From a virus (taxonomy: Duplodnaviria > Heunggongvirae > Uroviricota > Caudoviricetes), in the IMG/VR virus record IMGVR_UViG_2609459790_000001, positions 1-38,270 of that record: a stretch of 38,270 bases of DNA; one strand, given 5' to 3'. The notes below the pieces were generated by a model. That model was not told the origin of the DNA. It worked only from the letters and a program-made list of their open reading frames with translations, and ran no database searches. Made by a program: the position numbers and the translations under genes. Each line of letters starts with the position of its first letter. Position 1 is the first letter of the stretch. Below are positions 14,033 through 17,149 of the stretch, one piece after another.

Positions 14033-14235
14033 CGTTCTCAGTAAAAACCATTCCAGACATGCTCGTTGAAGCATACGGAAACCAGACAGAAGTAGCACGC
14101 AGACTGAAATGTAGTCGCGGTACGGTCAGAAAATACGTTGATGATAAAGACGGGAAAATGCACGCCATCGTCAACGACGTTCTCATGGTTCATCGCGGAT
14201 GGAGTGAAAGAGATGCGCTATTACGAAAAAATTGA
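14029..14235 (+). CDS. ninH: NinH
   Basis: 68 aa [39 protein letters not shown]... matches lambda NinH. Confidence 0.85.
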
Positions 14236-14884
14236 TGGCAGCAAATACCGAAATATTTGGGTAGTTGGCGATCTGCACGGATGCTACACGAACCTGATGA
14301 AAAAACTGGAGACGATAGGATTCGACACCAAAAAAGACCTGCTTATCTCGGTTGGCGATTTGGTCGATCGCGGTACAGAGAACGTCGAATGCCTGGAATT
14401 AATCACATTCCCCTGGTTCAGAGCTGTACGTGGAAACCATGAGCAAATGATGATTGATGGCTTATCAGAGCGCGGAAACGTCAATCACTGGATGCTTAAT
14501 GGCGGTGGCTGGTTCTTTAATCTCGATTACGACAAAGAAATTCTGGCCAAAGCTCTTGCCCATAAAGCAGATGAACTTCCGTTAATCATCGAACTGGTGA
14601 GTAAAGGTAAAAAATATGTCATCTGCCACGCCGATTATCCTTGTGACGAATACGAGTTTGGAAAGCCAGTTGATCATCAGCAGGTAATCTGGAACCGCGA
14701 ACGAATCAGCAACTCACAAGACGGGATCGTGAAAGAAATCAAAGGAGCGGACACGTTCATCTTTGGTCATACGCCAGCAGTGAAACCACTCAAGTTTGCC
14801 AACCAGATGTATATCGATACCGGCGCAGTGTTCTGCGGAAACCTCACATTGATTCAGGTACAGGGAGAAGGCGCGTGGGCATAA
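14213..14884 (+). CDS. ninI: Ser/Thr protein phosphatase (lambda NinI / lambda PPase)
   Basis: From [29 protein letters not shown] with metallophosphatase motifs GDLHG, GDLVDRG, GNHE; matches lambda phosphatase. Confidence 0.92.
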
Positions 14885-15393
14885 GAGAACTAAACCTCAC
14901 CAAAGAACAGCATGAGTGGCTGAATGGCTGGCTTGAACTGTGGGGCGCATGGGTTTATTCAGGTCGTCTGGAAAAGCGCATGAGCAGCGTAATAGCGAAG
15001 TTCATGGAGAGCGTAGAGCCGGGAAGAGTTATGACAAGGCCAATGTGTAATGATGATGATGGAATGTTGATTTCTCAGGTCGTCGATTCCGTCATGTACA
15101 TTGACAAGAAAGCCTTTGGCATCCTCCTCAGCTACTACGCTCATGGTTCATCTAAGCGAGCAATTGCATCCTACTATCACGCGACTGCAAAGCCACGCAA
15201 GATGTGTGGACGTGGTGGCGAGGGATGGAGAAAACCTTCACTGGCAACCTGTAGAAACGAAATTGACGACATCCTGAAAGCGTCGTTATTTGTTTTGTAC
15301 CAGCCAATGCAAAATGCTTTCAAAATGCGTAAACGTGTTGAGAAAGTTAAGCATGTTGCTGTTAAAAGCCTTGACATGCAATTATCCATTTAG
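14875..15393 (+). CDS. Q: Late-gene antiterminator Q, non-lambda (phage 21/82-like) type
   Basis: 172 aa; position directly before PR' and the lysis cassette; WGAW ... [11 protein letters not shown] pattern of the alternative Q family; GTG start overlapping the ninI stop. Confidence 0.8.
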
Positions 15394-15400
15394 CCATAAT
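15371..15400 (+). promoter_or_regulatory. Late promoter PR' (with qut region)
   Basis: TTGACA at 15371..15376 and CATAAT at 15395..15400 (18-nt spacer), at the 3' end of Q. Confidence 0.5.
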
Positions 15401-15410
15401 TAGAAGGTAA

Positions 15411-15451
15411 GCTGCCGTTAGTGACTCTTAAGTTGCAACGGTGGCTTTTTT
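15411..15451 (+). terminator. tR'-like intrinsic terminator downstream of PR'
   Basis: Imperfect hairpin GCTGCCGTT ... AACGGTGGC followed by TTTTTTT. Confidence 0.5.
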
Positions 15452-15881
15452 TGTTTGCACAACAGGTAAGAGCATTGAACCCGCAGACCTCGCGGAATTG
15501 GTGAAAGGTGCCGCGCAGTGCTCTTATCGTTGTGGTGAAGCTCAATGGCGAGCTAGCAGATAGGCGACAGTGAAAATACTAGTCATGTAGCTGACCGCCG
15601 CGCGTACTGCAATCGGCAGCGCACCGATGGAAGCCTGTTCGATTCCGGCCGCCACAACCCAAACTGAGCCGTAGCCACTGGCTATCCTGAATTCATCAGT
15701 GATAGTTACGCTGCGGCCTTCTACACATGACCTTCGTGAAAGCGGTGGCAGGAGGTTGCGCTAACAACCTCCTGCCGTTTTGCCCGTGCATATCGGTCAC
15801 GAACAAATCTGATTACTAAACACAGTAGCCTGGATTTGTTCTATCAGTAATCGACCTTATTCCTAATTAAATAGAGCAAAT

Positions 15882-15895
15882 CCCCTTATTGGGGG
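15882..15895 (+). promoter_or_regulatory. sdi-like stem-loop upstream of S controlling dual-start choice
   Basis: CCCC-TTATT-GGGG hairpin 7 nt before the MKM dual start, as in lambda S. Confidence 0.5.
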
Positions 15896-15901
15896 TAAGA
15901 C

Positions 15902-16225
15902 ATGAAGATGCCAGAAAAACATGACCTGTTAGCTGCCATTCTCGCGGCAAAGGAACAAGGCATCGGGGCAATCCTTGCGTTTGCAATGGCGTACCTTCGC
16001 GGCAGATATAATGGCGGTGCGTTTACAAAAACAGTAATCGACGCAACGATGTGCGCCATTATCGCCTGGTTCATTCGTGACCTTCTCGACCTCGCCGGAC
16101 TAAGTAGCAATCTCGCTTATATAACGAGCGTGTTCATCGGCTACATCGGTACTGACTCGATTGGTTCGCTTATCAAACGCTTCGCTGCTAAAAAAGCCGG
16201 AGTAGAAGATGGTGGAAATCAATAA
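15902..16225 (+). CDS. S: Holin/antiholin S (dual start S107/S105)
   Basis: 107 aa translation matches lambda S almost residue for residue ([44 protein letters not shown]...). Confidence 0.95.
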
Positions 16226-16685
16226 TCAACGTAAGGCGTTCCTCGATATGCTGGCGTGGTCGGAGGGAACTGATAACGGACGTCAGAAAACCAGAAATCA
16301 TGGTTATGACGTCATTGTAGGCGGAGAGCTATTCACTGATTACTCCGATCACCCTCGCAAACTTGTCACGCTAAACCCAAAACTCAAATCAACAGCAGCA
16401 GGACGTTACCAGCTTCTTTCCCGTTGGTGGGATGCCTATCGTAAGCAGCTTGGCCTGAAAGACTTCTCTCCGAAAAGCCAGGACGCTGTGGCACTGCAAC
16501 AGATTAAAGAGCGTGGCGCTTTGCCGATGATTGATCGCGGTGATATCCGTCAGGCAATCGACCGTTGCAGCAATATCTGGGCTTCACTGCCGGGGGCTGG
16601 TTATGGCCAGTTCGAGCATAAGGCTGACAGCCTGATTGCAAAATTCAAAGAGGCTGGCGGAACGGTCAGAGAGATTGATGTATGA
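16209..16685 (+). CDS. R: Endolysin R (lytic transglycosylase)
   Basis: 158 aa translation matches lambda R ([51 protein letters not shown]...). Confidence 0.95.
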
Positions 16686-17149
16686 GCAGAGTCACCGCGA
16701 TTATCTCCGCTCTGGTTATTTGCATCATCGTCTGCCTGTCATGGGCTGTTAATCATTACCGTGATAACGCCATTACCTACAAAGAGCAGCGCGATAAAAA
16801 AGTCAGTGAGCTGAAGCTGGCGAACGCCACCATTACTGACATGCAACAGCGCCAGCGTGATGCTGATGCACTCGATGCTAAATACACGAAGGAGTTAGCT
16901 GATGCGAAAGCTGAAAATGATGCTCTTCGGCGCAAGCTTGATAATGGTGGCAGGGTGCTCGTCAAAGGAAAATGCCCTATGCCATCCTCAGCCGAAACCT
17001 CCAGCGCCTCCGGCATGGGCAATGATGCCACCGTCGAACTCTCTCCAGTTGCTGGACGAAACGTTCTCGGTATCCGGGACGGAATCATCAGCGACCAAAC
17101 AGCACTGAGAACGCTTCAGGAATACATCAGGACGCAATGCCTTCGGTGA
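16682..17149 (+). CDS. Rz: i-spanin Rz, N-terminal half lambda-like with divergent C-terminal half
   Basis: N-terminal [34 protein letters not shown] matches lambda Rz; C-terminal region differs from remembered lambda Rz. Confidence 0.88.
16902..17108 (+). CDS. Rz1: o-spanin Rz1 (lipoprotein) embedded in the +1 frame of Rz
   Basis: [21 protein letters not shown]... with lipobox and proline-rich PPAPPAW segment, fully inside Rz as in lambda. Confidence 0.8.

Follow-up and report, generated by a model that had tools for sequence, protein, structure and literature searches.

What occupies the interval between the late antiterminator gene Q and the lysis gene S in a lambdoid phage, and how would its content be used? 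The question was addressed in a virus sequence of 38,270 nucleotides (the window; IMG/VR record IMGVR_UViG_2609459790_000001, positions 1 to 38,270), where the stretch analyzed covers the 1027 bp that begin with Q and run up to S. A preliminary description had presented the spacer of this interval as lambda-like with a small diverged patch. We found it to be mostly non-lambda and to hold two discrete structured-RNA modules, a hairpin (hp1) and a tRNA-like element (TLE). The fold of the TLE is kept by compensatory substitutions in the copies extracted from viral contigs and phages. On balance it seems probable that this region serves as the control cassette for the late operon of a P22-like/lambdoid mosaic phage, with hp1 and the TLE in its slot, and that the TLE likely acts as a processed, trans-acting tRNA mimic.

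Structure and conservation of the tRNA-like element

The TLE is a five-arm cloverleaf of 130 nt (15529-15658), defined by RNAalifold and pair counts. A covariance model scores it at 143.6 bits, and it is the sole copy in the window. The genes, control signals and RNA elements of the window described here are all on the plus strand. The element is closed by a stem of 9 bp (GTTGTGGTG/CGCCACAAC), within which a D arm (AGCTC-AATGGC-GAGCT) is followed by an extra arm of 55 nt (15556-15610), an anticodon-like arm (ATCGG-CAGCGCA-CCGAT, 15612-15628) with a loop of the family pattern NNNCGCA, a linker of four bases (GGAA) and a T arm (GCCTG-TTCGATT-CCGGC, 15633-15649), which has a U-C mismatch at 15636 and in which three of five pairs covary. 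The extra arm lies between the D arm and the anticodon-like arm and is made of two helices. Eleven of their 13 pairs are changed on both sides, and the bases of the internal loop AUA / GCGCGUA are invariant or almost so.

Two pattern scans of IMG/VR returned at least about 135 viral contigs, and 140 copies were extracted, nearly all of them from those contigs and the rest from other loci. The first search pattern fixed the anticodon-like arm, and a D-arm pattern was used to get independent copies; in these the anticodon-like arm covaries as well (ATCAG/CTGAT, ATTGG/CCAAT, ATAGG/CCTAT). RNAalifold recovered all five arms unaided from 57 distinct copies. Covariation was counted in 29 representatives with less than 96.5% identity, with controls in which the pairing partners were slid by 1-3 columns. 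Standard pairs fill 95.1% of the cells, against 31-45% in the slid controls, and changes on both sides occur in 23 of the 40 pairs, against 4-8, in a design that corrects for phylogeny only in part. The covariation score is 0.351, compared with 0.089 or less after sliding, and none of 500 shuffles reached it. G-U pairs are frequent and would be A-C on the opposite strand, so the RNA is that of the plus strand. The single-sequence fold is not significant (z -1.64 for 15455-15665, -1.16 for the TLE alone and -0.30 for the minus strand). Coding of a small protein was considered and rejected, since there are 1-nt indels among the copies and the substitutions follow base pairs, not codons.

The apical loop of the extra arm carries the self-complementary hexamer ACTAGT (15578-15583). 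Self-complementarity is found in 29/29 representatives and in 140/140 copies, though the sequence changes: ACTAGT in 76, TCTAGA in 23, TCGCGA in 15, GCTAGC in four, TCCGGA in two and ACCGGT in one, while the remaining form, TCTGGA (19/140), pairs with itself through G-U. Inside a single hairpin loop the hexamer has no way of pairing with itself, and the simplest reading would be that the loops of two molecules touch.

Resemblance to tRNA

Four tRNA arms, the GG of the D loop and the T-loop motif TTCGAxT are present, with covarying arms; C35 and G36 are invariant. Yet a 55-nt fifth arm stands between the D and anticodon arms, and the U33 and purine 37 of a tRNA anticodon loop are replaced by A33 and C37 in the window and most copies. 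In place of a 7-bp acceptor with an unpaired discriminator and CCA, the closing stem is 9 bp long in the window and reaches 15 bp in copies from leaders of the antiterminator gene N, and CCA is neither conserved nor encoded. The extra pairs of this stem covary (GTT/AAC, GGT/ACC, GAT/ATC, ATT/AAT). Since pairing covaries beyond 7 bp, the discriminator position is base-paired.

ARAGORN with default settings reports no tRNA gene in the window, and the Rfam tRNA model has no match even at E up to 10 on 241 nt. Searches with all Rfam families (E up to 1 on 3.5 kb and up to 10 on 241 nt, and also at the lambda, CUS-3, HK629 and E. coli C1 loci) gave chance-level matches only. After in-silico deletion of the extra arm, ARAGORN calls tRNA-Arg(GCG) at default settings, and it detects the element itself at 80% of the threshold. 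Lowered thresholds yielded five mutually inconsistent calls in 541 nt, and these runs served as a lead only. The TLE covariance model gives weak matches to genuine tRNAs. One E. coli copy (Eco_70239, NZ_CM160040.1, L151:1511-1637) is labeled as a 127-nt tRNA-Arg by the Prokaryotic Genome Annotation Pipeline (PGAP).

Genomic settings of the element

About 59 of the 140 copies lie in lambda-type late leaders, as in the window, and the other 81 are found in different settings. Some 22 copies follow an hp1 in other settings. Another 21 or so are flanked by two terminators; a different Q-like gene and an HNH gene precede them, and a holin-like gene follows. These copies were at one point set apart as a class of stand-alone TLE genes with their own terminator, a class that was dropped because they represent another late leader between two terminators after a Q-like gene. 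In the Salmonella siphophage Skate, whose copy is one of the 22 that follow an hp1, the TLE adjoins tRNA-Ile, which is 100 nt downstream, and the neighboring genes are on the opposite strand.

About 31 of the 140 copies are borne on a long CTTTGG/CCAAAG stem (CTTTGGGGTGTGGTG...CACCACACCACCAAAG). Those inspected lie between nutL (boxA and boxB) and the ribosome-binding site of N, with several unrelated boxB and N types. In the E. coli C1 prophage the N leader is lambda base for base through PL, nutL and the basal stem. The TLE then replaces about 95 nt of lambda, the top of the N-leader hairpin, and lambda resumes at CACACCACCAAAG. The N-leader hairpin of lambda is an RNase III site, and among the leaders compared here cleavage by this enzyme is known for that of lambda N only. 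The TLE copies of N leaders stand on a basal stem homologous to that of the lambda N leader, while the window copy has only the 9-bp stem and the adjacent hp1. Because copies occur in several settings (late leaders, N leaders and beside a tRNA gene), the TLE can be regarded as an independent module.

Genuine tRNAs fill TLE slots in Sf6, phage 21 and the Hafnia phage Pocitis76. The last of these has an annotated 80-nt tRNA-Gly in the N-leader socket between nutL and N (L159:851-930). This tRNA scores 29.6 bits with the TLE model and stands on the long stem that bears the TLE elsewhere and closes the lambda N-leader hairpin.

The TLE is present in 175 complete E. coli genomes, out of 5426, and 174 of the 175 have no RNA annotation there and a few rows read 'hypothetical protein'; in all but one of the records checked it is unannotated. 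Both E. coli copies inspected are in prophage regions and not at a core tRNA gene. Among species-representative genomes, the pattern was found in Klebsiella, Enterobacter, Superficieibacter and another Enterobacteriaceae genome. An E. coli-type TLE (149 bits) was also seen in contig JAUVQU010000080.1 (L154), from a metagenome-assembled genome binned to Cellvibrionaceae, which is probably a mis-binned enterobacterial phage contig.

The cargo slot and the hairpin hp1

The preliminary description had called the Q-S interval a known cargo site, and this is borne out by the relatives. Over the slot at 15452-15661, Sf6 and phage 21 have tRNA-Asn and tRNA-Thr instead, and then resume at 15662. CUS-3 is common to the window over 14876-15539 and then has another insert of 193 bp. 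In HK629, a gene for an HNH endonuclease, together with a terminator of its own, is inserted directly after the -10 element of the late promoter PR' and before the 21-type terminator (L005:1526-2229). A sensitive search with 15440-15700 found 15516-15658 at 94-95% in the Salmonella siphophages Skate, seszw, Akira and INT59, unannotated there, as well as at 78% in the Pantoea phage PdC23 and at 72% in the P22-like phage BIS08P22. A second, separate match, to 15458-15536, turned up in other Salmonella phages. The leader from the terminator tR' to S is a slot with different cargo in different phages.

The first module in the slot, hp1 (15458-15534), has a conserved basal stem (CACAAC-AGG-TAAGAGCA ... 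TGCTCTTA-TC-GTTGTG) and a variable top. This basal stem recurs with other apical sequence in lambda (L004:1289-1366), Skate, LPST49 and several viral contigs, and the lambda version has a fold z of -2.65. Compensatory changes in hp1, sought by eye, were too few to claim covariation. The last 6 nt of hp1, GTTGTG, are the first 6 nt of the closing stem of the TLE, and thus have two possible partners, CACAAC at 15458-63 and the 3' end of the TLE. The 3' strand of hp1 also holds a boxA-like TGCTCTT(A/T), for which no claim is made, since the predicted fold has these bases in a stem.

In CUS-3 (L003:2150-2370), HK629 (L005:2355-2470) and lambda (L004:1361-1445), the same 9-bp closing stem (GTTGTGNNG...CNNCACAAC) has unrelated inserts inside it, about 65-190 nt in length. 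The CUS-3 and HK629 inserts have a D-arm-like hairpin at the start and a T-arm-like one at the end. The covariance model did not find the TLE in lambda, Sf6, CUS-3, HK629 or LPST49, and the idea that the inserts of these phages are diverged TLEs was rejected on that account; they are different elements. Those of CUS-3, HK629 and lambda may be further families of RNA cargo.

Downstream of the slot, its conserved right flank (15662-15722) matches lambda at 96% and phage 21 at 98%, and is also present in Sf6 and in CUS-3, where it is annotated as bsq3. The leader then has a second terminator-like hairpin (15746-15781; -29.1 kcal/mol, z -3.96), conserved with lambda. It consists of 13 perfect pairs followed by GUUUUG and lies about 120 nt upstream of S.

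Late control cassette and mosaic map

Q (14875-15393) encodes a late-gene antiterminator of 172 residues. The preliminary description had placed it in the alternative 21/82-like family, and it can be assigned more narrowly to the phage-21 type by PF06530 (E 1e-25) and by the structures of phage 21 Q, Q21 (PDB 6JNX/6P18, E 1e-92). Residues 1-102 are nearly identical to Q21, and the C-terminal 60 residues are diverged. No part of Q, the promoter or the terminator matches lambda by blastn, in agreement with what had been described. PR' has a -35 element TTGACA (15371-15376) and a -10 element CATAAT (15395-15400) with an 18-bp spacer, matching 11 of 12 consensus positions. It overlaps the 3' end of Q and aligns with the annotated PR' of phage 21, Sf6 and HK75.

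Two 8-nt direct repeats, AATTATCC / ATTTAGCC (15380-15395), align with the annotated Q-binding element (QBE) of phage 21, and are a putative binding site for Q. The phage 21 element, at the same place, reads ATTGAGCA / AATGAGCA. The first repeat of Sf6 is one base off that of the window (ATTAGCC in Sf6, ATTATCC in the window). In phage L, Q-binding repeats have been described to vary along with the C-terminal part of Q (PMC8022706), and the differences in the window repeats pair with a diverged C-terminal part in the same way. This suggests that residues 103-172 of Q and the repeats at 15380-15395 represent a distinct Q/QBE specificity subtype.

The predicted transcription start is near 15407, by alignment to the annotated start site of phage 21, and is followed by a sigma-dependent pause element TAAGCTG (15408-15414), identical in sequence to the annotated phage 21 element. 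The intrinsic terminator tR' is formed by a hairpin (15409-15447; -21.3 kcal/mol, z -3.4), identical to the annotated phage 21 terminator, and a run of seven T (15446-15452). The column-by-column alignment gives the phage-21-type layout: the repeats lie inside the promoter, between its -35 and -10 elements, the pause element falls at +1 to +8, and the terminator is directly downstream. Both terminator hairpins of the leader were found by folding; a consensus terminator scan missed them owing to its loop and T-run rules.

The window itself belongs to a P22-like/lambdoid mosaic phage or prophage, according to its open reading frame layout and similarity searches. Besides Q and the lysis genes it has an integrase, an immunity region, replication genes and a nin region, its head and tailspike genes are of the P22 type, and its closest relatives over the whole length are IME10, Dewey and Louie. 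The junctions were mapped by blastn against lambda and phage 21. On the left, the 3' part of a ninI-like phosphatase gene (14489-14877; Pfam Metallophos) is 96.9% identical to lambda 43500-43888, and the lambda record itself marks a recombination point at 43884/43885. The segment 14878-15445 has no lambda similarity, and is 85.5% identical to phage 21 (match 14862-15457) and 98.8% to Sf6 (match 14138-15451).

The spacer had been described as lambda-like from about 15465. Similarity to lambda is indeed found there, but only over 33 bp (15446-15478, lambda 44775-44807, 91%), and is then lost until 15653. The divergence placed earlier at 15580-15660 corresponds in fact to a non-lambda stretch at 15479-15652, without BLAST similarity to lambda, the exception being 18 nt at 15517-15534 that form the 3' strand of a hairpin also present in lambda. 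The spacer string quoted in that description is also to be corrected, since the window reads TTGCACAACAGG..., starting at 15456, and not CTGCACAACAGG....

From 15653 to 16929 the window follows lambda 44936-46213 at 96%, through S (15902-16225) and R (16209-16685), and the match ends inside Rz (16682-17149); Pfam holin and Rz families support the assignment of these lysis genes. They had been described as lambda-type, which holds for S, R and the first half of Rz and not for its second half. The break at 16929/16930, in the middle of Rz, is another mosaic joint within a gene. Phage 21 matches 16682-16929 at 90%, Sf6 runs on to 17200 at 88%, and the joint is close to the boundary sequence bsq7 annotated in Sf6.

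The module swap of the preliminary description therefore stands as a 21-family Q-PR'-qut-tR' cassette between lambda-like ninI and lysis genes, and is not new. Bases 2-1027 of the region have a single unbroken match of 98.5-98.6% to HK75 (HM173637), vB_EcoP-611R6 and vB_EcoP-683R2, that is, continuous similarity to one known phage across Q and the spacer, which is the outcome that the preliminary description had named as refuting its reading. The same 1026-bp match includes Q, PR', tR', hp1, the TLE and the lambda-like leader, and at least 80% of the region is covered in 14 phage records. HK75 has a few point differences from the window, such as G against T at 15636 in the T stem, and its record annotates the promoter and terminator only, leaving the TLE stretch bare. 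Because HK75 and others match the region in one piece, the joint between the 21-family cassette and lambda-like DNA is, by this comparison, an old and widespread arrangement and not specific to this genome. In the CUS-3 record these flanks had earlier been labeled by its depositors as bsq3 and bsq4, two 'boundary sequences', and cassette and cargo would move between phages by homologous recombination in these conserved flanks. The swap as such thus adds nothing new to textbook lambdoid mosaicism, being present in sequenced phages.

Proposed mechanism and alternative explanations

In the mechanism that we propose, transcription from PR' would stop at tR' after about 46 nt when Q is absent. With Q, the modified polymerase would read past tR' through hp1, the TLE and the hairpin at 15746-15781 into S. 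If only Q-modified polymerase passes tR', the TLE would be made late, as part of the leader. It might then be cut out by the host enzymes of tRNA and rRNA maturation (RNase P, RNase E, or RNase III acting on flanking stems). The freed TLE would be a stable RNA acting in trans, for example by occupying or distracting a host factor that recognizes a tRNA elbow together with an Arg-like anticodon loop, and the acting form might be a dimer in which the self-complementary hexamers of two loops pair. The function of the TLE is probably that of a processed, stable tRNA mimic. A wider proposal, which we advance tentatively, is that five-arm tRNA mimics in antiterminated leaders of enterobacterial temperate phages form an undescribed class of phage RNA. 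Its members would be released by the host, would dimerize by kissing loops, and would be directed in trans at a tRNA-directed defence nuclease, arginyl-tRNA synthetase or a modification enzyme, with hp1 and the socket elements of CUS-3, HK629 and lambda as further cargo RNAs of a system overlooked until now, even in the leaders of lambda.

Several observations weigh against a trans-acting mimic. The window copy has T at 15636, where the consensus has G, opposite 15646, and this mismatch is found in the window only among the 57 distinct copies. With G at this position the single sequence adopts the complete cloverleaf of five arms as its minimum free energy structure (-49.7 kcal/mol). T at the same place causes misfolding of the T arm and the anticodon-like arm, and leaves the consensus structure 7 kcal/mol above the minimum. 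The window copy may be impaired or weakened, or T15636 may be a sequencing error. The copies were gathered by sequence patterns, with some columns fixed by construction, from a narrow sample (Enterobacteriaceae phages and prophages) with many near-identical members. The idea of a dimer comes solely from the self-complementarity of the hexamer, and literature searches, including searches by the TLE sequence, returned no description of the element and no experimental data. Most copies are in leaders of antiterminated operons, where a purely cis role fits equally well. Such a role is the main rival, somewhat unlikely in our estimation: the TLE would be a folded processing or stability module, with RNase P or RNase III cleavage uncoupling the terminator or nut leader from the mRNA, or an aid to the modified polymerase, and would have no role as a free RNA. 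It would account for most copies coming directly after the site at which the antiterminator loads (qut/tR' or nutL) and ahead of the first gene, for the N-leader copies standing on the basal stem that closes the lambda N-leader hairpin, an RNase III site, and for the GTTGTG shared by hp1 and the TLE closing stem, which makes alternative pairings possible. A processing signal, however, needs neither a conserved elbow of D and T loops nor an invariant internal loop nor a self-complementary hexamer. The TLE is also found beside a tRNA gene in the Skate-type phage, on the strand opposite to the neighboring genes, and lambda lacks it in both leaders.

The other explanations are less likely than a cis role. 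That the TLE is a working tRNA-Arg gene, which either retains its 55-nt insert or splices it out and adds to the decoding capacity as the tRNA-Asn and tRNA-Thr of Sf6 and phage 21 do, is improbable, even with the PGAP label on one copy, the tRNA-Arg(GCG) call once the arm is removed, intact D-loop GG and T-loop TTCGAxT, invariant C35 and G36, and a slot that holds real tRNAs in relatives. Most copies have A33 and C37, the discriminator is base-paired and CCA is not encoded, the insert is itself under structural selection, and both default ARAGORN and the Rfam tRNA model reject the element. We know of no bacterial splicing system for such an insert, and to our knowledge GCG is not a normal bacterial Arg anticodon. 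Neutral filler, be it a decayed tRNA pseudogene or a recombination leftover in a tolerant spacer, would agree with the high mosaicism of the spacer, the stem mismatch of the window copy and the non-significant single-sequence fold. It is nevertheless very improbable in view of 23 compensatory pairs, 95% pairing in copies down to about 72% identity and from unrelated genomic settings, and invariant loop and junction sequences. Least probable of all is a signal in DNA and not in RNA, such as a recombination boundary, an attachment-site-like tRNA fragment or a palindromic protein-binding site. The CUS-3 flanks annotated as boundary sequences, the hexamers, which are palindromes coinciding with restriction sites, and the CACAAC and GTTGTG repeats flanking the modules would fit it. 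But only one of the strands tolerates G-U pairs, the cloverleaf is preserved in full and not just as a tRNA 3' half, the element is on the chromosomes of only 175 of 5426 E. coli genomes, and a protein site would not keep symmetry alone while its sequence changes. An attachment-site remnant in particular was rejected, given the full cloverleaf and the location of the inspected E. coli copies in prophage regions. The trans-acting tRNA mimic remains the reading that we prefer.

The value of the locus lies in the content of its spacer, a structured RNA with strong covariation that is unannotated in the late or N leaders of many prophages and fills slots where relatives have tRNAs or toxin genes. 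If the TLE is a trans-acting tRNA mimic, it would be an RNA-based addition to the accessory functions of phages, and would point to the conserved stems in the N and late leaders of lambda itself as docking sites for exchangeable RNA cargo. For annotation, tRNA finders miss the TLE or, in one record, call it tRNA-Arg.

Comparison with known systems

Phage 21 and the window share the Q family, the pause element, the terminator hairpin and the layout. They differ in overall DNA sequence (85.5% identity), in the Q-binding repeats and in the C-terminal 60 residues of Q, and at the place of hp1, the TLE and the lambda S of the window, phage 21 has tRNA-Asn, tRNA-Thr and a pinholin of its own. Lambda shares the hp1 basal stem, a like 9-bp closing stem (GTTGTGCTG/CAGCACAAC) and everything from 15653 on, whereas the sequences inside both stems are other and shorter, with no covariance-model match to the TLE.

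Among non-decoding RNAs, YrlA-type Y RNAs copy the tRNA elbow, and the ends of YrlA form a protein-binding stem and not an acceptor stem. The dimerization initiation site of human immunodeficiency virus type 1 is a kissing-loop dimer signal with a 6-nt self-complementary loop flanked by purines. The TLE would resemble both in general idea; its topology differs from that of YrlA, and it has no Rfam family match.

Phage-borne tRNA genes occur in the Q-S interval of Sf6, phage 21, phage L (PMC8022706) and Stx phages. Unlike these tRNAs and canonical tRNA-Arg, the TLE has a 55-nt fifth arm, A33 and C37, a closing stem of 9-15 bp and no CCA, and is missed by standard tRNA finders, while it shares with them the same slot, elbow-forming D and T loops, the order of the arms and the stem lengths.

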